From the NCBI GenBank assembly GCA_029983675.1, contig JASBYY010000004.1, positions 6,497 through 70,496 on the forward strand: a stretch of 64,000 bases of DNA, in the 5' to 3' direction. A program made the translations under genes and the position numbers. Below, piece by piece: positions 10,354-36,750 of the stretch; position 1 is the stretch's first letter, and each line of letters opens with the position of its first letter. Source of the DNA: Bacteroidales bacterium. Its GTDB lineage: Bacteria > Bacteroidota > Bacteroidia > Bacteroidales > F082. The notes beneath the pieces were generated by a model. That model was not told the origin of the DNA. It saw nothing but the letters and a program-made list of their open reading frames with translations, and did no database searches.

Positions 10354-10442
10354 TTGGTCAACATAACCATATACAGAATGGGCGAGACAATGCCCGGCGC
10401 ACGTCCGTTGCGCAGCTTGGTTAGTTGTCCGTTCAAGATGCC

Positions 10443-11786: not shown

Positions 11787-11857
11787 ATCTCGATTACGTG
11801 TTGCAAAGATAATGTTTTTTTTCGCTTACTTGCCACTGGGAAACGGTATGTGTGAAT

Positions 11858-11892
11858 AAAAAAGAGCCTCGCTTCGGGGAGAAGCTGAGGCT
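11858..11892 (-). terminator. Rho-independent terminator downstream of the coiled-coil lipoprotein gene
   Basis: AGCCTCGCTTC-GGGGA-GAAGC(T)GAGGCT forms a hairpin. The plus-strand A-run at 11857-11863 gives a T-run after the hairpin on the minus strand. Confidence 0.55.
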
Positions 11893-11919
11893 ACTTAAAA
11901 TTGAAAACGAGCAGAAATT

Positions 11920-18982: not shown

Positions 18983-19043
18983 AATCGGGCAAAAGTACGA
19001 CATTTTTCAGTATATTTGCGCCCAAGAAAAGGACTGCTTTTTC

Positions 19044-20646: not shown

Positions 20647-22932
20647 TCAAAATTGTTTCCTCTTCGGAGGCGGATTGACCATTCCTATCAACGCAGCAGC
20701 CATTTTAGAGCCTGCCACAAACCATACCAGATCGCCTTCTAGAAAGACGATGTTGGCGGAAGGGTTCAAAATGAATCTGCCATCACGTTCGATGGCGATG
20801 ACCATGGCATTGAAACGGTCACGCAACCCCGAATTGCTCAGTTCGACCCCAACAAGGAAACTCCCCGCTTGAAGTTCAATTCTATGGATGTCCACATCGC
20901 TCTCCACACGTTCCTTGATCAGCACATCGTCTTCAATCACCACCCTTGACTTCAACTGCGAAAGATGGGCTTCCGAGCCGACAAAAGTGACGATGTCGTT
21001 CGGGAAAAGCATAAAATCCTTCCCTGGCAGATCGACCACCTTATCCCCTCTTTCCACGCTGACCAAACTGATGTTGTAATTGTCGCGAAAATCAGATTCT
21101 TCAATACGAATGCCGGCATAAGGACTTGCCACGCTGATTTCCATCTTCTCCAACGCAAAGTTCTCCTTCAGAATTTCAGGGACGATAAACGTATGCTGTG
21201 TCTGGCGTTTGTTCATGTTTTCGATGAAACGTTTCTCCATACGTTCATACATCCTCATGACAGGCGTCAGCCCCCTCAGCATGAAGCAGTAAACAATGGC
21301 AAAGCCCATATTGATCCATGCACCGCCCTTCACGCCGACATGGCTCCAGAAACCGGCGTTAAAGAACTGACGCAGCGCATAATAGGAAAATATCAGGATG
21401 ACAACGAATCGGAACAGGAAAACAAGCGAAATCAAGGTCTTGTTGAACTTATTGCCCGACATCAGTTTGCGCGTGGTATGCACCTTGCTGTGCTTGAAGG
21501 CCATCGCCCATAGAAAAGGCGACATCAGCACCAGCGTAATGGCCGCCGAAATGGCATTTCCCCACGGCATGGACACGTGTTTCGCAACCAAACTGCAAAG
21601 CGAAAAACTCAACAGCATGACTGCGATGATAATGGCGGCATAAATCACTATGTTTTTGAACTGTCGCACAAGAAAGGCTCCCATCGACACTTCTTTGCCA
21701 CTTTTCACTTTCAGTCCTGATGATTGGTTCGACAAACCACTCTTCCACCTTTCGGGAATGATGCGCATGATGCTTTGATACAACGGAAGTCCCGCCTTGA
21801 TACTATAAGGTGTGATAAAGGTAGTGATGACCGAAACCGACACAATAATAGGATAGAGAAACTCGTCAATGACACCGAAACTCATGCCGACGGTCGCAAT
21901 GATAAACGAGAACTCGCCTATCTGCGCGAAACACATCCCCGACCGAATGGCGTCTTTCAAGCTGGCACCCGAAAGCAACATGCCAAAAGTAGAACTGGAC
22001 GACTGCAACACCACGACAACTACAGTAAGCAGCAGGATTTGCCACCAGTACCGGACAATGATATCCGGATTAATCATCATGCCGACGGAAACGAAAAACA
22101 CAGCGCCAAACAGATTCTTTACCGGCGTGGTCAACTTGTATATCATGTCGGCTTCCAAAGTCTCCGCCAATATGGACCCCATGATGAACGCCCCCAATGC
22201 CGACGAAAACCCTGCGAGATTGGACAAAACGACCATCATGAAACACAATCCGACCGAAAACACCACCAGGGTTTCCTCATTCATCAGCTTGCGCACTCTT
22301 TTTAACAGGCTTGGAATGAGAAAGATGCCGCCGATGAACCATACCAACAAAAAGAAGCCGAGTTTCAGAATGCTGTAAAGCAGCTCCTTACCATCGAATG
22401 TGGCGCTCACCGACAAGGTGGACAATATCACAATCAAAAGAACTGCCACCAAATCTTCGACCACCAATACGCCGATAACTCCTTCGGTGAAACGCTCCTT
22501 GTTGATTTTCAAGTCATAAAAAGCTTTGGCGATAATGGTGGTTGACGACATGGCGAGCATACATCCGAGAAAAATACAGTCCATCTTCGTCCATCCAATC
22601 AGTTTGCCGACAAAAAAGCCCGACAACATCATGGTAATAAAGATGGTGAGCACCGTGATACCGACACTGCCGCCTACCCTTTTCAATTTCTTGAAACTGA
22701 ACTCCAAGCCTATGGCAAACAACAGGAAGACCATGCCGATTTCGCTCCATGTCTCCACACTGCTACGATCGGTAAGAACTGGAAAGTACGAGAAATTAGG
22801 GCCGATGAGAAAGCCGGCAATGATATACCCCAGCACCAAAGGCTGCTTTAACCACTTGAATAGAACCGTGGTAACTCCAGCGGTCACTAGTATCAAGGCT
22901 AGGTCGGAAAATAAGGCAGGCAGGTTCGACAT
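20647..22932 (-). CDS. Cation:proton antiporter (CPA2/Kef-like) with additional TM segments and two RCK_C/TrkA-C domains
   Basis: The N-terminus matches the Na+/H+ exchanger family (LALILVTAGVTTVLFKWLKQPLVLGYIIAGFLIGP). The C-terminal half carries two TrkA-C-like repeats. The likely start is the ATG at 22932 (MSNLPALF...). Confidence 0.8.
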   Translation of the reverse strand: MSNLPALFSDLALILVTAGVTTVLFKWLKQPLVLGYIIAGFLIGPNFSYFPVLTDRSSVETWSEIGMVFLLFAIGLEFSFKKLKRVGGSVGITVLTIFITMMLSGFFVGKLIGWTKMDCIFLGCMLAMSSTTIIAKAFYDLKINKERFTEGVIGVLVVEDLVAVLLIVILSTLSVSATFDGKELLYSILKLGFFLLVWFIGGIFLIPSLLKRVRKLMNEETLVVFSVGLCFMMVVLSNLAGFSSALGAFIMGSILAETLEADMIYKLTTPVKNLFGAVFFVSVGMMINPDIIVRYWWQILLLTVVVVVLQSSSSTFGMLLSGASLKDAIRSGMCFAQIGEFSFIIATVGMSFGVIDEFLYPIIVSVSVITTFITPYSIKAGLPLYQSIMRIIPERWKSGLSNQSSGLKVKSGKEVSMGAFLVRQFKNIVIYAAIIIAVMLLSFSLCSLVAKHVSMPWGNAISAAITLVLMSPFLWAMAFKHSKVHTTRKLMSGNKFNKTLISLVFLFRFVVILIFSYYALRQFFNAGFWSHVGVKGGAWINMGFAIVYCFMLRGLTPVMRMYERMEKRFIENMNKRQTQHTFIVPEILKENFALEKMEISVASPYAGIRIEESDFRDNYNISLVSVERGDKVVDLPGKDFMLFPNDIVTFVGSEAHLSQLKSRVVIEDDVLIKERVESDVDIHRIELQAGSFLVGVELSNSGLRDRFNAMVIAIERDGRFILNPSANIVFLEGDLVWFVAGSKMAAALIGMVNPPPKRKQF

Positions 22933-23071
22933 GACGATTTGATTTCTATTGGGCAAAAATAAGAAAAAGTCGAAAACGATGATCAACTCCTTATAAACAC
23001 TATCTCACACAGAATGCGCAGAATACGCAGAATTATACATAACATGCGAGAAGGCTTCTTAGCTAATCACG

Positions 23072-23936
23072 CCCTTAATCCTTGTTGTAGTGGAATTTGA
23101 CTTGACAAAATAAGATATCTTGTACCCAAGGATTTACAAATCGTCTTAATCCTTGTTGTAGTGGAATTTGACTTGACAAGTTATAAGTGAGTCGTTTTAT
23201 AACGACCTTCTGTCTTAATCCTTGTTGTAATTTAAGCCTGTTTTCGATGCTTCACGTTTCAAGTTTTATAACGACCTTCTGTCTTAATCCTTGTTGTAGT
23301 GGAATTTGACTTGACAAACATGATATACAGTATCCTCTGGTCAACAGGGTCTTAATCCTTGTTGTAGTGGAATTTGACTTGACTTTATTTTGCGAACAGG
23401 AACAAGTTCCCACTACGTGTCTTAATCCTTGTTGTAGTGGAATTTGACTTGACGAAAAATAGGTTTGTGTCCATTGTTGGCACAGATACTGTCTTAATCC
23501 TTGTTGTAGTGGAATTTGACTTGACGCACAGAACACCCCGTATTTCGGGGTAAAAATTGTCTTAATCCTTGTTGTAGTGGAATTTGACTTGACTTGTCAT
23601 ATGCGACGAATACAGACTGATAGAAGTCTTAATCCTTGTTGTAGTGGAATTTGACTTGACGGAGCATCCAGAATATCTCCATTTTAAATGGAATGTCTTA
23701 ATCCTTGTTGTAGTGGAATTTGACTTGACCCAAATGCGAATCATCAGCCACTCCAAGTATGAGAGTCTTAATCCTTGTTGTAGTGGAATTTGACTTGACC
23801 TTTGCGGATGACGAAGACGACTTTGCCAAAAGTCTTAATCCTTGTTGTAGTGGAATTTGACTTGACCAGAGATGGAGTAGTGAGGACTGCGAAGGTGGTA
23901 CGTCTTAATCCTTGTTGTAGTGGAATTTGACTTGAC
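23072..23936 (-). CRISPR. CRISPR array: 13 repeat copies of 35 bp, 12 spacers of 32-37 bp
   Basis: The plus-strand repeat is GTCTTAATCCTTGTTGTAGTGGAATTTGACTTGAC. Repeats start at 23072 (2 mismatches), 23143, 23212 (only the first 18 nt conserved), 23281, 23349, 23419, 23491, 23559, 23626, 23695, 23765, 23832 and 23902. Orientation is inferred as minus. The cas genes and AT-rich leader lie on the 23937+ side, the degenerate repeats lie at the far end, and the minus-strand repeat ends in ATTAAGAC. Confidence 0.97.
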
Positions 23937-24385
23937 ACCTTGATTCTCAATATATTGTCATCAATAATCACCTTGTTTGTTTGGCGCAACTCCTTTCATT
24001 TGTTTGTTTTACATAAGCTTTCCTGAATTCTTCGCAAAGATACTGTTTTTTTGAATACAAAAACAGGAATTTTTACACATTATTTTCACTTTGCCTTATC
24101 ATTCAATCATTTACATGGAAAAAAAAGTTCTCAAACCGAACCTCTATTGGGCAAAATCCATCCATTTGCGAAGAAATGGCCTTTCTTTATTTTACATATC
24201 ATTGACAATAAGCATTTTACAATAAGCTCATCCAAAAATGTTCGCAAATGAACGACTCAAATACGCATCAGAATGCAATTTGCGAACAATTCGCGGCGGC
24301 AGTTTTCCCATGCTATTTGGTTACCACTTTCATTATCGGCGTTTTAGCGTTTTACAAAATGTTCGCAAACGATTTGGCCTCCCTC
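23937..24385 (-). promoter_or_regulatory. CRISPR leader (449 bp) with a candidate array promoter
   Basis: This is the non-coding interval between the cas2 stop and the first repeat, AT-rich next to the array. On the minus strand, TATCTTTG (plus 24035-24042) matches the Bacteroides -7 consensus TAnnTTTG about 100 bp upstream of the first repeat. There are five copies of TTTGCGAA[CG]A. Confidence 0.6.
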
Positions 24386-24685
24386 CTACACCATCCGCAC
24401 CGTGTCGGGAGGTTCGCGACGGTCGGGTTGATACACGATCTTCGTATAGCAATTGACACAAACCGGATAATAAATCACCGAATCCTGCCCGTCGTCAACA
24501 ATCTCACCTATCTTTCGCCTGAGTCTGCCGTACACGGCTTCCGTCAGCATACATTCGAACACGCTGTAATTCACGCGTGTTCCGTTTGCCTCAAGCAATT
24601 TCACCACTCGGTTCCGCCGTTTGTCATCCACAATATCGTACGCTACAACTATGAACAATTTCCTGGCGCTTATTCTCTTTACCAT
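24386..24685 (-). CDS. cas2: CRISPR-associated endoribonuclease Cas2
   Basis: 99 aa. The start FIVVAYDIVDDKRRNRVVKLL...YSVFEC is the canonical Cas2 ferredoxin-fold N-terminus. It overlaps the cas1 stop by 7 nt. Confidence 0.9.
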   Translation of the reverse strand: MVKRISARKLFIVVAYDIVDDKRRNRVVKLLEANGTRVNYSVFECMLTEAVYGRLRRKIGEIVDDGQDSVIYYPVCVNCYTKIVYQPDRREPPDTVRMV

Positions 24686-26949
24686 TTTGCAATATAAGGT
24701 TTGAACGTTTTCCCGCTTCCAATATAAGCGGCTATTTCTTTGGCCTGTTCTACAAAGATGCGTTCGAAGGGCATCTCTTCGCCGCGATACTTCTCATACC
24801 TGTTCATGCGCTCAAGCACGCCTTTGGTCAGAATCCTTTTAGTTGCGTCGCACAGAAGGTTTCCTTCCATTTTCAATGCCATGCCCCTTTGCACCATTCC
24901 TATCACCACCCTGTCGGCTCCCTGCGCCCTGAATAGCTCTACGACATCGAAAACCAATGTGGGTTTTCCGGCTTGCCTTTTGTGCAACACCCCGTCCATC
25001 GGGTTCAGGCCCTCGCCGAGCAACGCCTGCCAAACCCTGTTATACAAAAACGAATAGGCATAGTTCAGCATGGAATTGACCAAATCGGTGGCGCCTCGCC
25101 GCACCCTTCCTTCAAAGCCCGCTTTATCGTCTTTAAGCAACTTCCCGACATATTTCCAATAGTGGACAGCGGCCTGTGCTTCTTTTCCTATCAATACCTC
25201 GTTATAGTTTTCGGCAAAAGGCAGCTCCTTGAGTTCGCCGACGATTTCCGACAACTTGGCCGTGGTCAGCGCAAATTGCGTGTCAACATCTTCTTTTGTG
25301 GTCTTATGGTACTTCTGGAAGTACTTCACCAAGTTCGCCTGGTTTTTAAGCTTTCCTAAAATCAGTCGCTTAGCCAGAACGAAGCGTTGGTTTTCGGTCA
25401 TTCGAGCCTGTTGCCCCCAAAGTGTGCTCTCCATGAATTTTAGGCTGAGTACCGAGGCATAATGTACGGAGCTATCAAAAAAATCGACGGGTATTCTCCT
25501 ATCCATGCAGAACCGGATCACATTGCTCGACAGCGACACGCCTTGCCCTATCACGGTAAGATGTCGCAGCGAAGCGGAAGGCTTCTTGTAGGCCATCTTA
25601 CCTTGTATGCGCACGACAATGTTCTGCCCGCTTATTCCAATGTAGCTACCCGGAGTACGGACCACCAATTCGGAGCCTTCGGCTTCTTTTTTCCGATACT
25701 CTGTCTTTCGGCTGTTGATGAGGCGACGATTCTGGTCATCGGCAATTTTCGACTGTTTCTTGCCTTTGACGGCCAGGTAGGTGTCGGTCAGCTGTTGAAG
25801 GATTTGTTTTCGCTTGAGTTGCATTTCAGCCGAAAGAAATGCAATCTCTGCCAATCCGTTTTTCAACACGGAGATATTCCTGATTTTACCGACCTGCTGT
25901 TCTATCATGGTCTGTACTTTTCGCACAAGAGCTTTGTCCAACTCTACCAATGTGTTTTCGGGAAGCAACTTTCCGTAATAGTTGCGTATGCCGTTCCACA
26001 GCTTTGTCTCTTTGTCGGTGAAAACGCCGTTGTGCGACTCGAGACCGTCAATCCGCTGCAAAAGTTCTCTCTTTTTATTTTCGGAAAGAGACAGTCCCGT
26101 TTTGTCCAGTGTGATGCCGAGAAACTCGAAGCCGTCTTCGATTTTCCCGATTTCAGGTGCGTTGAGCGACAGTTGGAGCCGCTCTTTCAGAAAAACCGTC
26201 GCCTCTTCCCTTATGGCCTCGGCCCTGTTCTGCGTTTCGCACAAGATGATGAAATCGTCGGCATAACGCACATACGACCGTGTTCGTGTCAGAATGAACT
26301 GGTCGAACTGGTGCAGGTAGAGATTGGCCAGCATGGGCGACAGTACGGCTCCTTGCGGCACGCCACATTCGATTTCTTCCCATTTCTGTTTCTTGTTTAC
26401 CATGCCCATTTTCACAGAAAGCTGAATCAATCGGTTGATTTCCTCATCGGGAATCAAGGATCGAAGCCTTGCAAAAAGAATATCGTGGTTGATGGTATCG
26501 AAATAGTTGTCAATATCCAAGCGAAGCAGCCACTGATTGGCTTTGTTTTGACATTCAAACAAAGCCCGTCGAATGGCTTTTGCATGACCTTTCTGCGGAC
26601 GATAGCCGTAACTGTTGCCTAAAAACAACTTTTCGAAACGAGGCTCGACGATTTGCTTTATCGCCGTTTGCACCGTCTTGTCTTTCAGCGAAAGCAGCCC
26701 TATCGTCCGGGTTTCACCCGTTTTCTTGGGGATGCCCATCTTTTTATAGGGCTGTGGTTTCCATGTCCCCGAACGCAATTCGGCAATTAGTTCTGTCAAA
26801 TGCTTGTCAAGGCGGTTTTCAAACTCAACGATAGTAAAACCGTCAATGCCTCCAACGCTGTTTTTGGCTTTTACCAGTCGCCATGCCGACATCAGCTGTC
26901 CGAGAGAGCACAATGCTTCAAATAACGATTTACCCATGTTTCGTTTCAA
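24679..26949 (-). CDS. cas1: Reverse transcriptase-Cas1 fusion protein
   Basis: 756 aa. The N-terminal ~330 aa form a group II intron-like RT (GIDG..., LDIDNYFDTINH, GVPQGAVLSPMLANLYL, YVRYADDFIIL). The C-terminal ~320 aa resemble Cas1 (...LHKRQAGKPTLVFDVVELFR...). Confidence 0.9.
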   Translation of the reverse strand: MKRNMGKSLFEALCSLGQLMSAWRLVKAKNSVGGIDGFTIVEFENRLDKHLTELIAELRSGTWKPQPYKKMGIPKKTGETRTIGLLSLKDKTVQTAIKQIVEPRFEKLFLGNSYGYRPQKGHAKAIRRALFECQNKANQWLLRLDIDNYFDTINHDILFARLRSLIPDEEINRLIQLSVKMGMVNKKQKWEEIECGVPQGAVLSPMLANLYLHQFDQFILTRTRSYVRYADDFIILCETQNRAEAIREEATVFLKERLQLSLNAPEIGKIEDGFEFLGITLDKTGLSLSENKKRELLQRIDGLESHNGVFTDKETKLWNGIRNYYGKLLPENTLVELDKALVRKVQTMIEQQVGKIRNISVLKNGLAEIAFLSAEMQLKRKQILQQLTDTYLAVKGKKQSKIADDQNRRLINSRKTEYRKKEAEGSELVVRTPGSYIGISGQNIVVRIQGKMAYKKPSASLRHLTVIGQGVSLSSNVIRFCMDRRIPVDFFDSSVHYASVLSLKFMESTLWGQQARMTENQRFVLAKRLILGKLKNQANLVKYFQKYHKTTKEDVDTQFALTTAKLSEIVGELKELPFAENYNEVLIGKEAQAAVHYWKYVGKLLKDDKAGFEGRVRRGATDLVNSMLNYAYSFLYNRVWQALLGEGLNPMDGVLHKRQAGKPTLVFDVVELFRAQGADRVVIGMVQRGMALKMEGNLLCDATKRILTKGVLERMNRYEKYRGEEMPFERIFVEQAKEIAAYIGSGKTFKPYIAKW

Positions 26950-26985
26950 TACGTCAAAGAACGCTCAATAACAGCCCTCCATCTA

Positions 26986-27888
26986 CTATTTGAACTGTCC
27001 GTAACCCACATTGGTCTTGGCACCGACGCCGACAGTGAGTATGATTTCTTGAAAAAGTTGCGCTTTTTGGTTAGCATTTAAAGAGATTTTCCTTACTCCG
27101 TTGTTCGATTTAATTTCAACCGTACTATCCGTTAGTTTGAACCTAAATTCAAATGTAATGCCCGGCAATACTTTTATGAACATCAATGGAGTCGGATTTT
27201 TTAGAGGATCGGGATGATGTGTGATAAAGTCACTGGCAAGGAACTTCTTGCTTTTTCCCGTTTTTTCAATGTTGATGACAGCATCGAAAAACACATCTTT
27301 CCCTTCGGCATCTTGTTTGCCAAAAATATCATCTTTCAACGTTTTTAATGCTTCGATATCGATATTCTTCAGCATGTTTTCCCATGCGTTCTTATTCTGT
27401 TCATCGGTACATCTCTTTTTTACCTCTTCAAGAATGAATTTTATCGTATCCAACGAGGTTTGATCAGTTTGATCTTTTTCGTTCTCAAACACACTTTTCA
27501 ATACACCTTTGATGGAACTGCCCGGAATAACAGGTTGTCCGGTTGTATGGTCAAAATAAAAGCCTATCTTGATATCGCCTTTTGCATTACTATCGTGCGT
27601 ATAGCCTGAACCACATAATAATCCGGGATAGGTTGTAGCCAGATTAAAATGATGGGAAGCCGCATTATTCTCAATTTGCGTGTAATCTTTCAATGTGTTA
27701 GCAAAAACAGCTTTATAGAATATGTCAAAGGGAGTGACTTTCGCATCTTTGGGAATATCAATGAACAACCTCTCTTTTTCATTATTTTGAGCAGGTGTAA
27801 ATTTTATTTTACGCTTAATCGCATCTTCCGTATATAATCTTTTATATACCATCAAGCCCACATTGGGCGCTATAAAATTCCATGCCAT
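26986..27888 (-). CDS. cmr6: Type III-B RAMP protein Cmr6
   Basis: 300 aa with the RAMP motif PGSSIKGVLKS and a C-terminal glycine-rich loop GVGAKTNVGYGQFK. It is the last gene of the cmr1-6 series. Confidence 0.85.
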   Translation of the reverse strand: MAWNFIAPNVGLMVYKRLYTEDAIKRKIKFTPAQNNEKERLFIDIPKDAKVTPFDIFYKAVFANTLKDYTQIENNAASHHFNLATTYPGLLCGSGYTHDSNAKGDIKIGFYFDHTTGQPVIPGSSIKGVLKSVFENEKDQTDQTSLDTIKFILEEVKKRCTDEQNKNAWENMLKNIDIEALKTLKDDIFGKQDAEGKDVFFDAVINIEKTGKSKKFLASDFITHHPDPLKNPTPLMFIKVLPGITFEFRFKLTDSTVEIKSNNGVRKISLNANQKAQLFQEIILTVGVGAKTNVGYGQFK

Positions 27889-27890
27889 AA

Positions 27891-28286
27891 TTAGTCATTT
27901 TTAGGTTTAGGTGTGGGGTAGGTACGAATAGCTAACTTTAACGCGATGGCACATTCCTGAATCTTCTTTTTCAGACATTCGTCATTATATCGGGTAATGA
28001 CTTCTTCCAATAAATGTTGTTCGTTGTTGAATATGCCTATTTCTGGGCTTTGCAGCATTTTCTCAAGTGCTACCGGTATAAGGCTTCTATCTGCATTGGT
28101 GGTTTGCTCCGCACCTTTTGAATAAAATATCAATGTGGGAAGCAATCCCGATGATATGAGACTTGCACCAAAAGAGGAGATATATCCATTGTAAGTTTTG
28201 TCAATTTCTCCGTTTTTAACTATACCTAATCTGTTGTCTTCCAGCACTTGTATGGCGACAGGGATATATTTTTCTATATTTCTCAT
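27891..28286 (-). CDS. cmr5: Type III-B small subunit Cmr5
   Basis: 131 aa predicted helical protein between cmr4 and cmr6. Its start overlaps the cmr4 stop by 4 nt. The assignment rests mostly on size and position. Confidence 0.7.
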   Translation of the reverse strand: MRNIEKYIPVAIQVLEDNRLGIVKNGEIDKTYNGYISSFGASLISSGLLPTLIFYSKGAEQTTNADRSLIPVALEKMLQSPEIGIFNNEQHLLEEVITRYNDECLKKKIQECAIALKLAIRTYPTPKPKND

Positions 28287-29104
28287 GACTTTGTATTTTT
28301 GAACTTGATTTTATGAAATTTACATAACCCATAGCCTACGCTGCTGTTGGCTCCGATTTGAATCGGTTCTTCTAAGAGTTCCTTTTCAAATTCCGAAAAG
28401 GTTGCGTCGTCTAATAAACCCTGTTTGGGAACCATATAAGTTATAAATATCGTTTGGTGAGGAACCACCTCCTCGTACCAAAGATTTTTGTCCTCATCCA
28501 GGCGATTGCGGGCGATTACAGGTAAGTTTTCAGCATAATTTCTGAATTTATCATCGCTTACCAGGGCATATTGTTGATCAAAAGCTGTAAAATTAATGTC
28601 AACTGTGTCTGAAAATGGCGTTGAATAATCTACCCTTTGCAAATCATCGTCTTCCAGAAATATCCTGTCTACAAGGCCTTCTTCCTTTGTAAACAGTTTA
28701 TCTGTTTCTGTTGGTAGTTTCAGTAGCTCTTTATCAAGAATCATTTTTGCTTTCTCGTTCACAAATTCCACATTTTGAGGACAGAATGTGAGAGCAAACT
28801 GACGATGTGAACATCTTACGGGTAAAGCTACCAGATCAGCATTCAAAAAATTAAGGTTGCCGCTTTCGGTATCATTATCATTATTTGTTTTCTTACCGAA
28901 TAGTAGGTTCGTTTTTTGATCGGTTTTCCCCCAAACGCTCTCAAAATGTTCTCTGAGAGATCCCTTTAAACTTGATGCGTGAATGGTAGGATAATTGAAT
29001 ATCGTGTCGCGTTGTACTAATTTGTCCACGATCCCGTAACTGGCATCACCGCTCCCTACATGTAGGTTGGTTATACACTGAATTAAATACGCTTGTGTTG
29101 TCAT
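28283..29104 (-). CDS. cmr4: Type III-B backbone RAMP protein Cmr4
   Basis: 273 aa. The N-terminus is TNLHVGSGDASYGIVDKLVQRD, followed by PTIHASSLKGSLREHFE and a C-terminal G-rich loop IGANSSVGYGLCKF. Confidence 0.85.
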   Translation of the reverse strand: MTTQAYLIQCITNLHVGSGDASYGIVDKLVQRDTIFNYPTIHASSLKGSLREHFESVWGKTDQKTNLLFGKKTNNDNDTESGNLNFLNADLVALPVRCSHRQFALTFCPQNVEFVNEKAKMILDKELLKLPTETDKLFTKEEGLVDRIFLEDDDLQRVDYSTPFSDTVDINFTAFDQQYALVSDDKFRNYAENLPVIARNRLDEDKNLWYEEVVPHQTIFITYMVPKQGLLDDATFSEFEKELLEEPIQIGANSSVGYGLCKFHKIKFKNTKS

Positions 29105-29110
29105 TTTTTG

Positions 29111-30178
29111 TTATTTTTTAATGGTTTGAATTCTATTAAACCCTATATTTCGGGCATTATTACTCTTATTGAATAATTCTTGGGCCTTTTGCATTTCATC
29201 TTCATTTTCAAAAAACAATATGCTGCCGCGTTTAAGCAAATTATAACGATAGCTCATTTTATACCCTTTTGAAAAGCTGCTGTAATTCTCACTGTTGTTG
29301 GAGCTATGAAGATTTCGGAAAGAGATGTTTTCATTGATTGCAAAAACCACGTGTTCCCATACTTCTTCTTCAACAAAACAGTCGGAAATACAATAAATAG
29401 CCGGTTTAAGGCGTGGCGGAAGGTTAAGTTTAAAATCGGTACGATTACCGCTGCATTCATTTACTTCAAGGAGGAATAATTGCTGTTCGGCTCCCATGGT
29501 AATGAATTGTTTATCATGGCTTAAATTACAATCGATTTCAGCATCAAAGGCAAAAGACCACCCTTTATTCAACTTATACATTACCTGCTTGTAAAATCCG
29601 TCATCTTCCGTTTTTCCTTTTTCCCCTTTTTTATTGCCCACGGTTTCATGTTTGATAAACACAAAATCCGTATCATTTTCTTTATCTTCATCTTTAAAGA
29701 ACTTGAAAGTACTATAATCTTTTACGTTGATAAATGTCGGATTATAGCCAACTTTCGCATCGTACCCTTTCAAATAGTAATTGTTATAGAGTTCTTTTAA
29801 TTCAAATTCTTGATCAAAAGGTGCAATGATATATTTTTCACTTTCTCTAAGAAAATAAAGTGGTGATATTTCATTTATTATTCCAAATTTCTGCTCCGTT
29901 TTTCCATCTTTACCCACGAAGCCATAAATAAAACTATTTTCACCAATCAGATCATTGGCTTGAGATTCTTTTTTGTTTTTACGCGGACTGAGGCAACCGT
30001 TTTTCATCAGTAGATAGTAACGTAACGTTCCAAGCAGGGTGGTTTGTTGGGGATATAATTCAGACCTCACATAGTAGTCCATTTCAAACTTGCCCGGTTC
30101 TCCTTTTTTTTCAGTATGTTTTTCCCCTCCAAAAAAATAGGCATTTACCGGGGTGAGCTTTATTTGATAATTGTTCAT
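29111..30178 (-). CDS. cmr3: Type III-B protein Cmr3
   Basis: 355 aa with N-terminus KLTPVNAYFFGGEK typical of Cmr3. Position and size fit, and there is a 4 nt overlap with the cas10 stop. Confidence 0.75.
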   Translation of the reverse strand: MNNYQIKLTPVNAYFFGGEKHTEKKGEPGKFEMDYYVRSELYPQQTTLLGTLRYYLLMKNGCLSPRKNKKESQANDLIGENSFIYGFVGKDGKTEQKFGIINEISPLYFLRESEKYIIAPFDQEFELKELYNNYYLKGYDAKVGYNPTFINVKDYSTFKFFKDEDKENDTDFVFIKHETVGNKKGEKGKTEDDGFYKQVMYKLNKGWSFAFDAEIDCNLSHDKQFITMGAEQQLFLLEVNECSGNRTDFKLNLPPRLKPAIYCISDCFVEEEVWEHVVFAINENISFRNLHSSNNSENYSSFSKGYKMSYRYNLLKRGSILFFENEDEMQKAQELFNKSNNARNIGFNRIQTIKK

Positions 30179-31821
30179 TGATCTTTTGATTTTTTAGGTT
30201 GAATAAACTGATAGTATCGCAATATAGTGAAGAGGATGTCTTTAAAACGTTTATTTTGCTTGTATTCTTCTTCTTTGCTGCATACCGTAAGATAATCTTG
30301 TTTTAAAACTTTTATTAGCGATGTAAAATAATCGGTAAAAGTGTTTTTCTCTTCATGTATTTCTTCGTTGAAGAAGTTTTCAATGAAAGCATCAATCCGA
30401 TCATTTCGTACCGCATGGATGAAAGTCGTGAAAAATACATCGTCTTTCAACCGCTGAATCATTCCGCTGAGCGTGTCTTTTTTATCTTTTCCTTGCAGCT
30501 GTAAGGTGAGCAATTCATAAATTCTCTTAGCGGAAGCGGTTTTTGACTTGTCGATAAAACACTCCATATACTGACCGCTATGTTTTTGAAAACGAACGCT
30601 TACACCATTTTTATTTGGGAAAAGCTCCTTGTCCTGTTTGCACTTTTCCAACATGTTATGGGCTTGTTCCATCGCTTCACGCATGGGAAATTTATAATAA
30701 GAGAGCATAAAACCATACGATAAAGTGGGAATGGTTACTCCTTGCTCTTCGGCGTATTGACCCAATGTATCGTTGAAATCCTTATCTAAATCTTTGATAA
30801 GGATTGCCAATGATTTGAGATAATTGTCTCCATTGTAAGCAATGGGTAAAAAGGCCAAAATGTCTTCTCCTCCTAAATATATGGCACTCCCACCGTAGTT
30901 GTGGATGCTCTCTTCCGCTTTTTTTCCGAACAGAAGAAGTTTTTCGGAAAAAGTTTTTAATTTTTCCCTATCATTGGCAACACTGCTGAGCAAAGCACCA
31001 ATGTTATCACCATCGGCATACAGCACAGCGTAATATTTATGATAATCCTGCATCTTGTCTTTGAAAACGTCGTTCTTTTTCAACAAGTCAATAATCTGGA
31101 TATCTTCGTTTTTAAAATCTTCTTCTAACAACCGATTGTATGTTGTTGCATCTGCTTCTTTTAACAAGTCTGCAGTAGATATCTCTGCGATTGATTTGAA
31201 GTGCCGTCCTTTTTCATCTCCGAAAGCATCTTTTTTCAGAGCGGTGTTTTCGTTCCATTTCGTAGCAAAATAATCAATCAAAAAATTTGAGTTGATATCA
31301 AATGCATATCTTTTATTTAATTCTTTGTTGTCTAACAGATTGTTAAGGATTTTTAAAACCGAATTATCAGATTTCCCTTCTTTATTCTTAGATGTTGTAA
31401 TAGAGGTCAACTCTTTATCCGTTAAAGAAATTTCAACAATATGGAGATTCAAGTAGTTGCGTAAAAATGCAACAATGTCTCCGTTTTTCAGTGTTGCGTT
31501 TTTACAACAGATGTCATCTGCAAAGAACTTTATCGTATTATCAACAAAGCCTTGAATATCTAATTTTGATTTATTTACAAAATATAGGCGATCGGCATAC
31601 AGCCCAGCCCCATATTTTCCTTTATTCACCCCTTTCTGCGTATTGTCATCTAAAGGTTTGTCATAGGGTAACAGTATCTCCCAATCATTGTCTATAGCCT
31701 GCTCAAGTATTTTCCTCATGAAAAGTGAAAAGAAATAGCTGGCCGCCCATATGCTGCGCGTGCGTTTTGCTTGGGTAAAGGTATCATATATGGGCCCAAT
31801 GGTTATTGCTGTGTATTGCAT
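30175..31821 (-). CDS. cas10: Cas10/Cmr2 large subunit, short form without an HD nuclease domain
   Basis: 548 aa. The palm/cyclase motifs are YAVLYADGDNIG (res 265-276) and YLGGEDILAF (GGED at res 317-320, nt 30862-30873). No N-terminal H..HD motif is present, since the protein starts directly with MQYTAITIGPIYDTF. Confidence 0.85.
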   Translation of the reverse strand: MQYTAITIGPIYDTFTQAKRTRSIWAASYFFSLFMRKILEQAIDNDWEILLPYDKPLDDNTQKGVNKGKYGAGLYADRLYFVNKSKLDIQGFVDNTIKFFADDICCKNATLKNGDIVAFLRNYLNLHIVEISLTDKELTSITTSKNKEGKSDNSVLKILNNLLDNKELNKRYAFDINSNFLIDYFATKWNENTALKKDAFGDEKGRHFKSIAEISTADLLKEADATTYNRLLEEDFKNEDIQIIDLLKKNDVFKDKMQDYHKYYAVLYADGDNIGALLSSVANDREKLKTFSEKLLLFGKKAEESIHNYGGSAIYLGGEDILAFLPIAYNGDNYLKSLAILIKDLDKDFNDTLGQYAEEQGVTIPTLSYGFMLSYYKFPMREAMEQAHNMLEKCKQDKELFPNKNGVSVRFQKHSGQYMECFIDKSKTASAKRIYELLTLQLQGKDKKDTLSGMIQRLKDDVFFTTFIHAVRNDRIDAFIENFFNEEIHEEKNTFTDYFTSLIKVLKQDYLTVCSKEEEYKQNKRFKDILFTILRYYQFIQPKKSKDQ

Positions 31822-31825
31822 GATT

Positions 31826-33238
31826 TTACTTCTTATTTAAATTACTCAATGAGGTATAACCAATTTTTGTTGACGCCATTTTCATAAAGTCCACAAGTGA
31901 AAAATCTTTTGGCGTTGACAAGATGAAATCTTTTTGTTTACTTTCTTCCAAAGAACACATATCATTTCTTTTATTTCTATAATCATGAATTCGGAAAATA
32001 AATTCTTTATCCTGGATTTCTTTTGACAACTCATTTCCTACCAAATAAACATTATTGTCAATAACCTTGAACAGAAGAGGTGACCGAAACCTTTCAATAT
32101 CTGAAGAGAGTTCATAGTAATGCGTTTTATCATTCTCATCGACAATGGTAGCATAATCATTTCTATGCATTCTTTCTGCCTCCTCAACAATTTCATCTCC
32201 TTTCAAAAACACACTAACGATAATAACATCTTTGTCTTTCTCATTATAAAGTTTAAACTCATATTTTGATGACAATCCTAACAATGCACGAATAAAATAA
32301 TATTGGAAAGTCTGTGGATCATTCCATCCTTTTTCTGTTTTCTCATTATTCCCATAAATTGGAGGTTTCTTACCCTTGAGATTAAACCCTTTCCCCCTAA
32401 TGCCTTGTTTTATTTTTCGTTTCTCCCAACGAAAACCTTTGCCAACAAAATATTCGAAAAGTATAGATTTTTTATATATTTCATTGCTATGTCGTGTCTT
32501 AGGTATATTTATACCTGATTTCAGCAACTTATAATCATCATTAATGGTTTGTAAAATCTGAACTATTTCAGAAGACTGTAATGTTTTTTTGTACACAAAA
32601 GAAAACTCTTGTTTCAATAATTCCTCATTATTTTTGAGTTCTTTATTTTTCTGATTGTACTCAATCTTTGTTGGCAAAAAACAACCGAAGCCCTTACTTT
32701 GCCGTGTGCCAAAATTTGTAGAAATGAAAAAAAGCTGTATGTATTTTAAAATTTCTGAGAAAAGATCTTCTTTTTTTGTTAGAATTAAAACGTTTGTGTC
32801 ATCACTTTCAACAATCCCTTTCTTTTCTATTTTGTTCCAATCAGCGATTACATTATGACTTTTTACTATTTGAGAATTCTGTTTTTCCTGTGCAAAAAAA
32901 GGACTGTTGCTTATTACCTTAATCTCTCGATTTTCAAGGTTTTTTGCATCGCTCCCTTTAATATATGAAGCCAATAAGTATTCAGTTCTGGTTGAATTGC
33001 TATTAATATCTATCCTCATCTTATAATCTAATGCCGGATGTTCTCCTTTGCCTACAAGCCATTTGTTCTCTTTGGCCGTATTGATGCCTTGTTGGTAGTC
33101 TCCGTTTCCCAATTTCGTCAGAATAAACTTATCCAACTTCGGCTTCACTTCGCTTGCCCGCAGGGTGGCTCCCTCCTGATCGTGCTGAAAGTGGATCAGA
33201 GGTGTGTGCTGTTTTAAAGTTACTTTTAATGTATGCAT
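31826..33238 (-). CDS. cmr1: Type III-B RAMP protein Cmr1
   Basis: About 470 aa counted from the ATG at 33238 (MHTLKVTLKQHTPLIHFQHD...). It has the G-rich loop TNFGTRQSKGFGCF and is the first of the cmr series. The track ORF extends to 33295. Confidence 0.8.
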   Translation of the reverse strand: MHTLKVTLKQHTPLIHFQHDQEGATLRASEVKPKLDKFILTKLGNGDYQQGINTAKENKWLVGKGEHPALDYKMRIDINSNSTRTEYLLASYIKGSDAKNLENREIKVISNSPFFAQEKQNSQIVKSHNVIADWNKIEKKGIVESDDTNVLILTKKEDLFSEILKYIQLFFISTNFGTRQSKGFGCFLPTKIEYNQKNKELKNNEELLKQEFSFVYKKTLQSSEIVQILQTINDDYKLLKSGINIPKTRHSNEIYKKSILFEYFVGKGFRWEKRKIKQGIRGKGFNLKGKKPPIYGNNEKTEKGWNDPQTFQYYFIRALLGLSSKYEFKLYNEKDKDVIIVSVFLKGDEIVEEAERMHRNDYATIVDENDKTHYYELSSDIERFRSPLLFKVIDNNVYLVGNELSKEIQDKEFIFRIHDYRNKRNDMCSLEESKQKDFILSTPKDFSLVDFMKMASTKIGYTSLSNLNKK

Positions 33239-33245
33239 AACAGTC

Positions 33246-33653
33246 TTATTTTTTAGTTTTTGAGTTTGCAGAATTAAGAATGATGGATAACCCATCGATT
33301 ATTTTTTTGTAGAGTTCAATATCATGTTCAAGCAAGGCTATCTTGGAGTTGTAAGTGTCTTCAATAGAACTTTTGTCTTTTCCCAATTTTTCGGTTTTCT
33401 GCTTTAATTCATTGATTTCATTCTGAAGTGTTTCATCAGAAGCAACATTCACCTTTGCAATTAGATTCCAGTATTTTTCCTGTTCAAACGACTTTGTTTT
33501 CATCTTTCGAGCAAAGCGATTCTGAATGCAAGGTTTTACAATATGTTTCAACAAGAACACAAGGGCAACTAATCCGATGACACCCCAACATAAAGACGGG
33601 ATGGCATTCACTACATTCTGCCAATCTACGGCTAATAATACCAAGTCTTTCAT
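33246..33653 (-). CDS. Small membrane-anchored coiled-coil protein, uncharacterised, embedded in the type III-B operon
   Basis: 135 aa with one predicted TM helix (AIPSLCWGVIGLVALVFLL) followed by a K/E/L-rich coiled-coil-like segment. Its ATG overlaps the CorA-like stop (ATGA at 33650-33653), and it ends 7 nt before the cmr1 ATG. Confidence 0.65.
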   Translation of the reverse strand: MKDLVLLAVDWQNVVNAIPSLCWGVIGLVALVFLLKHIVKPCIQNRFARKMKTKSFEQEKYWNLIAKVNVASDETLQNEINELKQKTEKLGKDKSSIEDTYNSKIALLEHDIELYKKIIDGLSIILNSANSKTKK

Positions 33654-35116
33654 TTTATCTTCCTTTTAATGATCAATATAACTCCAATTACTACTGAGGC
33701 AACAAAACCCATGAGAGCAAACTGATAACCCCAGATATTGAACCAACGGGACAATCCTCCGCATCCGTTCAATGCCGTGTTACTCATCCCGAAGATGCCG
33801 GCGACAACCGTTATCGGAACAAAAATCGTTGCAATCCATGTGAGGAGTGATACCGTATTGTTGACTCTACGATCTTCTCGCAAAGTTACATAGTTGTATA
33901 ATTCCTCTATTTCTTTATCCAGTTTTTCTACGTGTTCGTTTATTCGTAACAGCTTGTACAGTTTCTCATACATCTCAATGCCTTGATCTTGTGCCGAAAC
34001 CTCCCGGAAATGAATCTTGTTGACAAAACGGATGTATTCTTTGTACAAGGAACTCAATTTCAAGCTCAACCCTTTCTTGTTATCCATATTGCTGATGTTT
34101 GTCACCTCTGCCGAGAATCGCAAAATCGAGGCTTTTTGAACCAAAACAAGTTCGGACATCCGAGCATACTCTGTTTCAAAATATTGAATTAGAAAATTAG
34201 GACATGTTGTATTGGCTAAATAGACCATTGAATACCGTGACACACCATACAACGAGCACCATTTTTGCCAGCGTTCGTAGGTAGATTCCTTTATGAGTGT
34301 TTTCTGCATTTCCGTATTTTGGCAGCTCATACCATTCGGATTATCAACAAACAGAAACTCATACCAATTATTACTCATGATGAAGTCTTCGTACCCTCCG
34401 CCACAGAACTGATTAGCCCATTCATCGTTCTTATACCATGACAGCACAAACATCCTATCGTCAATAACCGGTTTCAGCTGAATATTAGCTGCCACTTCAT
34501 GGATCATATCCGTAATAAAATCCGCCGGTTTGTTGTGCGGTGTTTTGTTGTCATATCGGCTGAAATCTTCGCAATAGCCGGTTTCACGTCCGTGGAGTCC
34601 GATGAATTCCAATTTTTGGGCAATCAGAAAGCGATTTTCCACATCTTTGATAAAAGGTGGAAAAACTCTTCTGCCATACTGATTGATATTCAACACAGCC
34701 TCCGGGTCTGCATATCTTCTGTTTTCCATGAAAAATGATAGAACACCAACGCCGGTCGAATACAGGTTCAAGTTGATGGCTTTTACATTCAACTCATATT
34801 CTTTCCCGCCGGCACAAGTTATTTTATACAATACCTCTCCGTGTTTTGGCTCATTTCGTTCATAATGGCGAATTAAAGAACCGTTTGAACCGTTGTCATA
34901 CAAGGCCTCGTGAACAAATTCATAAAAATAGTTTTTCTCGTTGTACAAATCGTCCGATTCCTGATTATTGGCAGGTGTTGTCACTCTTTCCCAATTGTCC
35001 GAATCGGAATACTCGATTTTATTCAGGTCGATTTGTTCCGACAAGGTTTTCTCTTCAAAACCTCTAACATCCCATCGAAAGGGGAATTGAAAATTATGAT
35101 AACTATATTCCATCAT
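33650..35116 (-). CDS. CorA-like membrane protein (type III CRISPR-associated CorA effector candidate)
   Basis: 488 aa with a ~420 aa soluble N-terminal part. The C-terminal architecture is CorA-like: TM1 (LLTWIATIFVPITVVAGIFGMS), a short loop, TM2 (YQFALMGFVASVVIGVILII), then a basic tail KRKIK. The signature is GMS (nt 33782-33790) where canonical CorA has GMN. Confidence 0.75.
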   Translation of the reverse strand: MMEYSYHNFQFPFRWDVRGFEEKTLSEQIDLNKIEYSDSDNWERVTTPANNQESDDLYNEKNYFYEFVHEALYDNGSNGSLIRHYERNEPKHGEVLYKITCAGGKEYELNVKAINLNLYSTGVGVLSFFMENRRYADPEAVLNINQYGRRVFPPFIKDVENRFLIAQKLEFIGLHGRETGYCEDFSRYDNKTPHNKPADFITDMIHEVAANIQLKPVIDDRMFVLSWYKNDEWANQFCGGGYEDFIMSNNWYEFLFVDNPNGMSCQNTEMQKTLIKESTYERWQKWCSLYGVSRYSMVYLANTTCPNFLIQYFETEYARMSELVLVQKASILRFSAEVTNISNMDNKKGLSLKLSSLYKEYIRFVNKIHFREVSAQDQGIEMYEKLYKLLRINEHVEKLDKEIEELYNYVTLREDRRVNNTVSLLTWIATIFVPITVVAGIFGMSNTALNGCGGLSRWFNIWGYQFALMGFVASVVIGVILIIKRKIK

Positions 35117-35849
35117 TTATGATTTTACTAATTGATTCAACATAATTCTTTATTTCATCGGATGAGAAACGTCCTCTTGGCAGACCGAAGAAGCCGCTTT
35201 CTCCGCCCCCGTGAAACGCCCGTCCTGTTTTGACTTCCTCTTGAAAACAATTGACAAGTTGAGGTTGTCTTTCTCCATAATAGACCAATTCCGCATTGTT
35301 ATAAACCAACAGGTTCCGGAAAGGATACAGGTAATCGACTATGGGTGAAAACCTGGAAACAGAGGTATATACTATTTTTAGATTTCCCTTTGATACGGCT
35401 TGTCGAGCATCTTCTTCCGCTATTTTTTCTTCCTCTTCCGTTACACCTTGGGCTTTCCGATCCGCCTGCCTGATGGATGATATTTCTTCATCCGTTGCTC
35501 CCAAAGCCTTCATCCCTCCGATGTATGCCGAATCGTTAGCGACAACCAGTTGCTGCCGGCGGTTCAACGGTACGTGCAGTAGGTCGGCAACCTGCTCCAA
35601 TGCGGATTTTTTCCCAAAATAATCGTTGTGGTGGTCAATGCGGACATAATGTGCAGGCGGAAGAATGTCTTCTCTCAATTCAATACCGTAAAACAGATCG
35701 GTTTCGTTGATTTCAGCCTGATATGCACTGAGCGTTGCATTATTCCACGACAAGCCGTTATCATGAAAACATTCACCACTTGCTAACAACATGTCCCTTA
35801 TCGTAAGCATCTCCAAATCATGTCCACCCAATAGAAAGATTCTCTTCAT
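35103..35849 (-). CDS. DHH-family phosphodiesterase (NrN-like, CRISPR-associated)
   Basis: 248 aa with GGHDLEM near the N-terminus, a DHH motif (VRIDHHND) and a GGG motif (FHGGGESG) late in the protein. It overlaps the CorA-like start by 14 nt. Confidence 0.7.
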   Translation of the reverse strand: MKRIFLLGGHDLEMLTIRDMLLASGECFHDNGLSWNNATLSAYQAEINETDLFYGIELREDILPPAHYVRIDHHNDYFGKKSALEQVADLLHVPLNRRQQLVVANDSAYIGGMKALGATDEEISSIRQADRKAQGVTEEEEKIAEEDARQAVSKGNLKIVYTSVSRFSPIVDYLYPFRNLLVYNNAELVYYGERQPQLVNCFQEEVKTGRAFHGGGESGFFGLPRGRFSSDEIKNYVESISKIINDGI

Positions 35850-35871
35850 AACAAACCCTTATCCTTTGTCG

Positions 35872-36582
35872 TTAAATACTTACCTCCATCCTCTTCACCA
35901 TTCCGAACCCCACGCTCACGCTTTTGCCCAGACCGATATAGTCGGGCAGGCTCACGTTGCACTTGAACTGCACGTCAAAGCCCTGCATCTTGACACCTTT
36001 ATAAGAATAGATGCGTGCATCTTCCAGTGCCGTGATGCGCACTTTCACGTCTTTTTCAAAATGAATGTCGAGACCGGTAGCAAAGGAAAGAATATTGCCC
36101 GTCAAGACACGCTCTAAAAATTCACATTGCTCCGCAAGACTTTCCAACTTCTTGTATTCCTGATAGTTCTCCTGATTAAGCGGCAGCCATTTGCGCAAAG
36201 TGTACGAAAACCATTCATCCCACACCTGCACCAATACCTGATCGGCTTTCACTTGCGACACTTCTAAATGCACCGGCCTTTCATTTATATTAATATCGAA
36301 ATTGCAGTTAGAGAAAAACTCGCCAATGGCCTCCGTTCCGTCACCGATACAAACGATGGCCGCCTTGCTGCCGATACGTTTGTATTGTATCAGTGGATAG
36401 GCATAACGGAATCCGCCATCCTGATGGTTGTGAAACAGCACATCGGCCTCGCCGCCCATGGAAGCGTTGACTGCTACCCTGAAAAACGGCACCTCTCCTT
36501 GACAAATCTCGTTTTTAAACTTCACTCTTAAGATCTTCATGCCCGATCGTTTTTCTAGCTCATTGATTTCCAACATATACAA
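35872..36582 (-). CDS. cas6: CRISPR-associated endoribonuclease Cas6
   Basis: 236 aa, with an alternative start at 36540 (MKILRVKF...). It has a C-terminal glycine-rich loop GLGKSVSVGFGMV typical of Cas6 and is the first gene of the operon. Confidence 0.75.
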   Translation of the reverse strand: MYMLEINELEKRSGMKILRVKFKNEICQGEVPFFRVAVNASMGGEADVLFHNHQDGGFRYAYPLIQYKRIGSKAAIVCIGDGTEAIGEFFSNCNFDININERPVHLEVSQVKADQVLVQVWDEWFSYTLRKWLPLNQENYQEYKKLESLAEQCEFLERVLTGNILSFATGLDIHFEKDVKVRITALEDARIYSYKGVKMQGFDVQFKCNVSLPDYIGLGKSVSVGFGMVKRMEVSI

Positions 36583-36615
36583 ACATATATAGTCGGTTCA
36601 TCAAGTTTTCAGCGA

Positions 36616-36623
36616 CAAAATTA
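36616..36623 (-). promoter_or_regulatory. Candidate -7 promoter box for the cas6-to-cas2 operon
   Basis: The minus strand reads TAATTTTG, which matches the Bacteroides TAnnTTTG -7 consensus, about 34 nt upstream of the cas6 ATG. No convincing -33 TTTG is seen at standard spacing. Confidence 0.25.
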
Positions 36624-36691
36624 CATATAATTTTTTTACAGTCGTCAACTCAACTACAAAAAAACACACCACAGGTTCAAATAACAAGTGC

Positions 36692-36727
36692 CTCAAAAAG
36701 AAATAGCGGCCGAAAAACCGCTATTTC
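36692..36727 (-). terminator. Rho-independent terminator of hppA, which insulates the CRISPR-cas operon
   Basis: A 10 bp stem GAAATAGCGG (36700-36709) pairs with CCGCTATTTC (36718-36727) around an 8 nt loop. On the minus strand the hairpin is followed by TTTTTG. Confidence 0.65.
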
Positions 36728-36750
36728 CTTGTCATCTCACGAAAAAACAC

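Follow-up and report, generated by a model that had tools for sequence, protein, structure and literature searches.

A Bacteroidales type III-B CRISPR-Cas locus of the predicted SAM-AMP class with a conserved small membrane protein gene beside corA

The Cmr complex of Bacteroides fragilis makes S-adenosylmethionine-AMP (SAM-AMP) and not cyclic oligoadenylates (cOA) (Chi et al. 2023, PMC10600005). In its Cas10 subunit, D70 and E151 shape the acceptor site for S-adenosylmethionine (SAM) and D328/D329 are catalytic; SAM-AMP is bound by its CorA protein, which requires R152/R153 and D219/D220; its NrN enzyme (D85/H86/H87) cleaves the molecule (PMC10600005). Synthesis, binding and cleavage have been shown for the B. 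fragilis proteins only (PMC10600005). Here we describe a type III-B (Cmr) CRISPR-Cas locus in a 64,000-nucleotide stretch of a Bacteroidales bacterium assembly (GCA_029983675.1, contig JASBYY010000004.1, positions 6,497 to 70,496), hereafter the window, whose own numbering is used throughout. Very probably it belongs to the same CorA-1, or B. fragilis SAM-AMP, class and works by the mechanism proposed below. It was compared chiefly with L020, a recovered B. fragilis-type reference locus whose NrN is identical over 246 residues to the solved NrN.

Twelve contiguous open reading frames (ORFs) occupy 24386-36582 of the minus strand, neighbours overlapping by 4-14 nt or lying no more than 36 nt apart. 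A preliminary description of this DNA gave 13 genes, of which 12 are present, the number that it itself listed; its packed minus-strand order from cas6 to cas2 after the hppA terminator, followed by leader and array, agrees with ORF layout and profiles alike. All six Cmr subunits (Cas10/Cmr2, Cmr1 and Cmr3-6) are encoded in one operon, each matching its own profile, and an array and a Cas6 enzyme adjoin them, as expected of type III-B. The adaptation module comprises an RVT_1 domain, with the reverse transcriptase (RT) motif YADD at residue 229, fused to Cas1 (752 residues from the ATG at 26937), and an adjoining cas2. The features are as follows, with the supporting matches.

36583-36750, minus strand: intergenic region with hppA terminator and promoter-like element (sequence read)
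35872-36582, minus strand: cas6, Cas6b type (Pfam Cas6b_N and Cas6b_C, 1e-38 and 1e-22)
35103-35849, minus strand: nrn, 248 residues, DHH-fold predicted SAM-AMP phosphodiesterase (PADLOC DHH_CorA, 7.5e-71)
33650-35116, minus strand: corA, CRISPR-associated CorA effector, 488 residues (PADLOC CorA, 1.3e-130, residues 3-482)
33246-33653, minus strand: small membrane/coiled-coil ORF, 135 residues (conservation and predicted transmembrane architecture)
31826-33295, likely 31826-33238, minus strand: cmr1, 470 residues from the likely start (PADLOC Cmr1, 1.5e-73)
30175-31821, minus strand: cas10/cmr2, 548 residues, HD-less (Cas10b, 5e-65; Palm2 and Cmr2_N domains)
29111-30178, minus strand: cmr3, Cas5 (PADLOC Cmr3, 5.6e-37; Pfam Cas_Cmr3, 1.7e-12)
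28283-29104, minus strand: cmr4, Cas7 backbone (NCBIfam Cmr4, 7e-47; catalytic Asp D27 kept)
27891-28286, minus strand: cmr5, Cas11 small subunit (PADLOC Cmr5, 6.6e-30; NCBIfam, 1.9e-6)
26986-27888, minus strand: cmr6 (NCBIfam TIGR01898, 2.4e-37)
24679-26949, minus strand: RT-cas1 fusion (Pfam RVT_1, 2e-35, and Cas_Cas1, 4e-58)
24386-24685, minus strand: cas2 (Pfam CRISPR_Cas2, 1.1e-22)
23937-24385, minus strand: AT-rich leader of about 450 nt, from cas2 to the first repeat (sequence read)
23072-23936, minus strand: CRISPR array, 12 full 35-nt repeats and one truncated repeat

The Cas10 protein has no HD domain and aligns from residue 1 with the HD-less Cas10 of B. fragilis, as had been described. 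Its best PDB match is the 600-residue Cmr2 of 9lq5 (2e-39), and this chain, 9lq5_B, is identical to L020 Cas10 at 501 of 502 positions. Both acceptor-site acids are kept, B. fragilis D70 corresponding to D77 and E151 to E167; in a family alignment of 143 sequences D77 is invariant, while E167 is glutamate in 138 and aspartate in five. The Palm2 motif reads GGED (E319 D320), not GGDD, with retention of the two acidic metal ligands after the glycines. GGED is found in 23 of the 143 family representatives, all inside the window's own subclade, which also has GLYADR where others have GLYPDR, and this distribution marks it as a lineage signature, not a lesion. The type III-D2 SAM-AMP synthase has yet another variant, GGDE, whose acidic pair D347/E348 is catalytic (PMC13294483). 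At E<1e-30 the Cas10 family runs to 537 representative clusters. D27 of Cmr4 corresponds to B. fragilis D27, mutation of which to alanine slows target RNA cleavage (PMC10600005).

CorA consists of a large N-terminal cytoplasmic domain and two C-terminal transmembrane (TM) helices, and is 49.5% identical over its full length to the L020 protein. The residues needed for immunity are kept, R152/R153 of B. fragilis as R149/R150 and D219/D220 under the same numbers, and all four are invariant in 121 of 121 CorA homologues. The motif GMS takes the place of GMN. Among the 121 homologues GMN is found in 86, SMN in 18, GMS in seven, AMT in four and other forms in six, GMS being limited to the nearest relatives of the window protein; since the motif varies across the family, the alignment suggests that the Mg2+ selectivity filter is not strictly constrained in CRISPR CorA proteins. 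The deviating motifs to which the preliminary description had drawn attention, GGED and GMS, thus both exist, each conserved within its own clade. A Pfam CorA search, which had been proposed as a check, bore out the C-terminal TM part (PF01544, 4.8e-11, residues 381-485 only); the rest of the protein is matched by neither Pfam nor NCBIfam, and the PADLOC CRISPR-CorA profile covers the full length. Assignment as a canonical CorA Mg2+/Co2+ transporter was rejected, the NCBIfam CorA model (TIGR00383) scoring 36.3 bits against a curated cutoff of 200.75 over the C-terminal 110 residues only, and the motif being GMS, not GMN. The family numbers 1199 relatives at E<1e-10 and has more than 1000 in Bacteroidales metagenomes.

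The nrn gene overlaps the start of corA by 14 nt. Its product carries the catalytic motif RIDHHN, in which D72/H73/H74 correspond to B. fragilis D85/H86/H87, and its E13 and D106 are the equivalents of E21 and D119, residues mutated in crystal structures. It matches PDB 9lq9-9lqc at 2e-69, with 48-50% identity to the enzyme crystallised with SAM-AMP. An AlphaFold (AF2) model (mean confidence, pLDDT, 94.2) found as its top Foldseek matches NrN complexed with either SAM-AMP or SAH-AMP (E 1e-31, TM-score 0.84-0.87), followed by DHH-fold PAP phosphatase (1e-7) and RecJ (1e-6 to 1e-4), and a profile built from 25 NrN sequences matches NrN alone in the PDB. The Pfam search suggested earlier, for DHH (PF01368) and DHHA1 (PF02272), found neither model in the 248-residue protein, nor any other Pfam or NCBIfam family at E<=0.01. 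Since these models do not match, the DHH assignment draws on the motif, the PDB match to NrN and the superposition of folds on the NrN-SAM-AMP structures, all of which uphold the phosphodiesterase identity originally given. There are 549 relatives of NrN at E<1e-40.

When the window's remaining 41 ORFs were compared with PADLOC and Pfam, neither a CARF nor a SAVED effector came up, which agrees with the earlier statement that the window holds no CARF, SAVED, Csx1 or NucC effector. The sole CRISPR-like match, a candidate CARF protein that is a sigma-54-dependent activator at 10443-11780 on the minus strand, was rejected: PADLOC RtcR_CARF_AAA_HTH (5e-110) covers it over profile positions 140-481 only, the AAA+HTH part.

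Taken together, the HD-less Cas10 with its acceptor acids, the R-R/D-D cluster of CorA, the adjacent NrN and the lack of CARF and SAVED proteins support, at the level of sequence, the membership of the SAM-AMP branch that had been claimed. The system has been characterised biochemically (PMC10600005), PDB structures exist, and the family is very common in Bacteroidales, being abundant in both gut and rumen members. SAM-AMP signalling through CorA and NrN is already demonstrated, and the structures of NrN and a B. fragilis-type Cas10 are solved, so that the locus as such adds little. Its interest lies in the distinct GGED subclade of Cas10 that it documents, in a natural swapping of modules that extends to cmr1, and in a conserved small membrane protein by corA, a testable candidate for CorA behaviour that is as yet unexplained.

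By homology, Cas6b would process the array transcript into CRISPR RNAs (crRNAs) carrying the handle ATTAAGAC, and the Cmr1-6 complex would bind complementary invader RNA and cut it through D27 of Cmr4. Target binding would activate the HD-less Cas10, whose acidic pocket, D77/E167, would accept SAM and not a second ATP, and the GGED palm would join AMP to SAM. This synthesis of SAM-AMP is predicted because the residues identified by mutagenesis in B. fragilis are conserved. SAM-AMP would then bind the cytoplasmic domain of a pentameric CorA at R149/R150-D219/D220, leading to perturbation of the membrane and to dormancy or death, and NrN would reset the system by hydrolysing SAM-AMP into SAM plus AMP. 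RT-Cas1 and Cas2 would add spacers, possibly from RNA. The 135-residue protein, translationally coupled to corA, may act as an accessory partner or regulator of CorA.

Sibling contigs have the cassette at the same hppA-adjacent site. Close relatives bear the names Bacteroides heparinolyticus or Candidatus Limimorpha, and in them NrN and the small ORF are entered as "hypothetical protein". The backbone diverges from that of the siblings by a synonymous divergence (dS) of about 1.0 in hppA, with nucleotide identity of about 84%, whereas dS in the cassette is 0.04-0.15 for nrn and corA and 0.07-0.10 from cas10 to cmr4. Since its synonymous divergence is lower, the cassette appears much younger than the chromosomal backbone, consistent with recent spread. 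L001, a Ca. Limimorpha metagenome-assembled genome (MAG) whose backbone is only about 84% identical to the window, matches it at 99-100% over a 900-nt stretch, 34379-35278, which runs from the 5' part of corA into the 3' end of nrn; such identity indicates a probable recent recombination or horizontal exchange.

Modules within the cassette have different relatives. At the same hppA-adjacent site in L019 (ENA ERZ21659601 NODE_499), nrn is 100%, corA 98% and the small ORF 98% identical to those of the window, but the Cmr module differs: its Cas10 is of the mainstream GGDD type, at 33% identity, and its Cmr3 stands at 28%. Four other siblings (L015-L018) share Cas10 at 96%, Cmr3-6 at 90-94% and cas6 at 75% identity. 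The cmr1 gene is itself a mosaic: the first 40 residues of its product are 100% identical to those of L015-L018 and the remainder 12-30%, although in L015 (where 10416-11912 was compared with 31826-33238 of the window) the neighbouring small ORF and cas10 are 85% and 96% identical. Overall, window Cmr1 is 47% identical to B. fragilis-type Cmr1 and 36% to that of its sibling L015. In L002, a Tannerella sp. MAG, a CorA 85% identical to ours is paired with a Cmr module only 26-42% identical and with a 187-residue DEDD-type exonuclease (9442-10005; VLDTEFT, HNALSDAE), which stands in NrN's place directly before corA. GC content fits a mosaic cassette, being 0.35 in cmr1-cmr4, 0.42 in nrn-corA and 0.46-0.48 in RT-cas1 and the flanks.

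The locus appears from these comparisons to combine a mainstream nrn-corA-small-ORF effector module with a rarer, low-GC, GGED-type Cmr module that has a swapped cmr1 body. L019 is a counter-example to the tight co-evolution reported for corA and cas10. Cas10 lineages with about 30% identity share one effector module, which points, indirectly, to a common messenger, and the near identity of nrn-corA behind such Cas10s at the same site argues for a messenger shared across lineages. SAM-AMP may be a shared "currency" that lets pressure from phages or anti-CRISPRs replace whole Cmr modules, and even single cmr1 alleles, while the effector module stays the same.

The gene between corA and cmr1 begins with an ATG that overlaps the corA stop (ATGA). 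Its predicted product has one TM helix (residues 17-35), in which the motif DWQNVVNAIPxLCWGVIGL is conserved, a stretch of charge +7 after the helix, implying an N-out/C-in topology, and a cytoplasmic coiled-coil tail in which 34% of residues are charged; the AlphaFold model is one continuous helix from residue 2 to 133 (pLDDT 82). The ratio of non-synonymous to synonymous divergence (dN/dS) is 0.10 against L015 (dS 0.72) and 0.19 against L002, and because of these values the 135-residue ORF is a real gene under purifying selection. Searches of Pfam, NCBIfam, PADLOC and PHROGs returned noise only (E>=0.0015).

In 67 related CorA loci whose sequence extends far enough downstream, we looked for an ORF of 71-189 residues with the same architecture, starting between -30 and +120 nt from the corA stop. 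Such an ORF follows corA in 46 of them, and in the remainder cmr1 follows directly. The architecture is shown by 58 of the 1769 ORFs of 60-220 residues in the surveyed loci; 46 of these 58 adjoin corA, and its frequency among other ORFs is about 0.7%. In two loci (L010 and L011) tblastn finds no cmr1 downstream of corA, and the small ORF still comes directly after it. Single-linkage clustering with phmmer joins 45 of the 46, though coiled-coil composition may inflate the linkage. In L020 the ORF has 159 residues, two TM segments and a charged tail.

The most likely role of the small protein is that of an accessory partner or regulator of CorA, and its predicted cytoplasmic coiled-coil would, on the model, lie beside the SAM-AMP-binding domain of CorA. 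More tentatively, at a little under an even chance, we propose that it supplies the CorA effector module with a third component, one not described before. Three observations weigh against such a part: about 30% of related loci lack the small ORF; immunity did not need it in the E. coli reconstitution that has been published; and homology between the window type and the B. fragilis type is weakly supported (hhalign probability 60%, 47 columns). The genes supplied in published reconstitutions were limited to synthetic cmr1-6, cas6, corA and nrn, the small ORF being omitted, and the ancillary genes named in published papers are CorA, NrN and NYN; the experimental literature accessible to us makes no mention of a small ORF next to corA. 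The B. fragilis authors report an unexplained toxicity of CorA in E. coli and an equally unexplained strict need for NrN (PMC10600005). If the small protein does belong to the effector module, it could gate, assemble or restrain the CorA channel, and this might account for the toxicity of CorA alone and the strict need for NrN in E. coli.

The assignment of the locus to the SAM-AMP class has to be weighed against other readings. A Cas10 of the GGED type might make a different messenger sensed by CorA, either a cyclic oligoadenylate, as has been suggested for the Actinomyces CorA/Csm6-2 clade, or SAM-AMP2, as in type III-D2. The window Cas10 does stand in a subclade of its own, at about 30% identity to the B. 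fragilis protein, CorA families with other activating ligands have been proposed (PMC11229360) and a III-D2 system also produces SAM-AMP2 (PMC13294483). We nevertheless consider a different messenger very unlikely: the same nrn-corA module, 98-100% identical, lies behind the mainstream GGDD Cas10 of L019, so that both Cas10 lineages should feed the same receptor; D77 and E167 are conserved; NrN is 48-50% identical to the enzyme crystallised with SAM-AMP; and the window scan gave no Csm6-2 or CARF protein. It is similarly improbable that CorA is a divalent-cation transporter tuning the activity of Cas enzymes, as reported for type VI-B1 RT-Cas1 systems, instead of a suicide pore gated by a messenger. 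In B. fragilis, CorA binds SAM-AMP and immunity depends on it, and its ligand-site residues are invariant here; the Asn of the GMN selectivity filter is replaced, in a motif that varies across the family; and corA has an obligatory partner that degrades SAM-AMP, NrN in the window and the DEDD exonuclease in L002. These points are set against the transport of Zn, Ni and Cd by a related Bacteroidota CorA that down-regulates Cas13b (PMC11662929), the homology of the C-terminal TM domain to Mg-CorA, and a membrane mechanism that is not settled even for B. fragilis CorA.

The non-canonical GGED and GMS, a truncated repeat with duplicated flanks and spacers without match to known mobile elements might also be read as marks of a decaying or inactive relic. 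We give this scarcely any credence: about 23 representative clusters have GGED fixed, as the nearest CorA relatives have GMS, 11 of the 12 full repeats are identical, and the cassette is younger than the backbone by synonymous divergence. All 12 ORFs are intact, with dN/dS of 0.03-0.5 for all locus genes against the sibling loci, the spacers are distinct, the RT keeps YADD, and the locus is apparently complete and, judging by its sequence, functional. Membership of the SAM-AMP class thus remains our preferred reading, with certain results counting against it. Identity between this Cas10, which sits in the separate GGED subclade, and that of B. fragilis is only about 28-32%, and CorA is without the canonical GMN Asn. 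With regard to activity in nature, none of 50,697 phage records or 72,556 plasmids matched when the whole array was searched by blastn, and three leader-proximal spacer cores have no exact match in IMG/VR.

The full 35-nt repeat, on the minus strand, is GTCAAGTCAAATTCCACTACAACAAGGATTAAGAC, ending in the predicted 8-nt crRNA handle, and a near-identical repeat is found in L015. The sole degenerate full repeat, deviating by two bases, is at 23072, the end far from cas2, and for this reason the stretch of about 450 nt beside cas2 is taken to be the leader. A truncated repeat, GTCTTAATCCTTGTTGTAA, lies inside 23178-23280, flanked by an exact 18-nt duplication, GTTTTATAACGACCTTCT, and marks a rearranged unit near the trailer end. 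All spacers are distinct from one another. Rfam reports neither CRISPR-DR nor any other RNA family in 22900-24500.

At the other end of the operon, hppA (Pfam H_PPase, 2.6e-271) is followed by a predicted intrinsic terminator, a 10-bp GC-rich hairpin, GGAAATAGCGG...CCGCTATTTC, and then T5; the hairpin was read by eye and was not reported by the automated terminator scan. About 30 nt upstream of cas6 is a TAATTTTG element, resembling the Bacteroidetes-type -7 element. The start of cas6 is most likely M15 at 36540, because homologues align from residue 15, and that of cmr1 is most likely the ATG at 33238, 7 nt past the stop of the small ORF. A 149-residue antisense ORF at 24248-24697 (plus strand) overlaps cas2 and is called instead of it in related public contigs; it is likely an annotation artefact that hides cas2.

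Elsewhere in the window, convergent Na+/H+ exchanger genes with TrkA_C domains, at 18918-20642 (plus strand) and 20647-22986 (minus strand), adjoin the trailer end of the array. A 682-residue ORF at 16955-19003 (minus strand) is matched by the PADLOC profile for DpdF (1.8e-122), but only over the first 240 of its 1499 positions; its product may be a housekeeping enzyme that has a domain in common with DpdF. Tandem paralogues at 338-2935 and 3192-5483 (minus strand), with Spi inhibitor, Peptidase_C10 and Por_Secre_tail domains, encode cysteine proteases with a C-terminal sorting domain for type IX secretion.

Among described systems, that of B. fragilis (PDB 9lq5-9lqc) is alike in gene order, cas6-nrn-corA-small ORF-cmr1-cas10-cmr3-6-RT-cas1 as seen in L020, in its HD-less Cas10, in Cas6b-type crRNA processing and in all the mutationally defined residues of Cas10, CorA, NrN and Cmr4. 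Identities to L020 are as follows.

NrN 50%, CorA 49.5%, Cmr1 47%, Cas6 40%, Cmr6 38%
Cmr5 36%, Cmr4 34%, Cmr3 32%, Cas10 32%

The differences are that L020 has an NYN ribonuclease gene (9399-10025) between cas6 and nrn, which the window and L015-L019 are without; that the window Cas10 is GGED, not GGDD, and 52 residues shorter; that its CorA has GMS, not GMN; that the small protein has one TM helix and 135 residues, compared with two and 159; and that the Cmr module is of low GC (0.35), with a Cas10 of a different subclade.

The type III-D2 CorA system, which makes SAM-AMP and SAM-AMP2 (PMC13294483), shares with the window a non-GGDD acidic pair in Cas10 and a CorA effector, and produces no cOA (PMC13294483). 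Its complex is different (Cas7x3, Cas7-5), a toxin-antitoxin module stands instead of NrN, and its CorA shares no more than about 15% identity with that of III-B (PMC13294483). CorA-1 loci with a DEDD enzyme or SAM-AMP lyase (Streptococcus oralis, Clostridium botulinum; PMC10600005, PMC12255297) follow the same logic of CorA and an adjoining degrading enzyme, which in the window is NrN. The type VI-B1 RT-Cas1/CorA systems of gut Bacteroidota (PMC11662929) share the RT-Cas1 and Cas2 module and a CorA of common origin, and belong to the same phylum and habitat, but their effector is Cas13b, there is no Cas10 and so no messenger, and CorA is reported to be a metal transporter that dampens interference. 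Finally, the canonical Mg2+ channel CorA (PF01544/TIGR00383; PDB 4i0u) has the two C-terminal TM helices and the stalk helix in common with the window protein (E 1e-5 to 5e-11), whereas the N-terminal 380 residues of the latter are unrelated.

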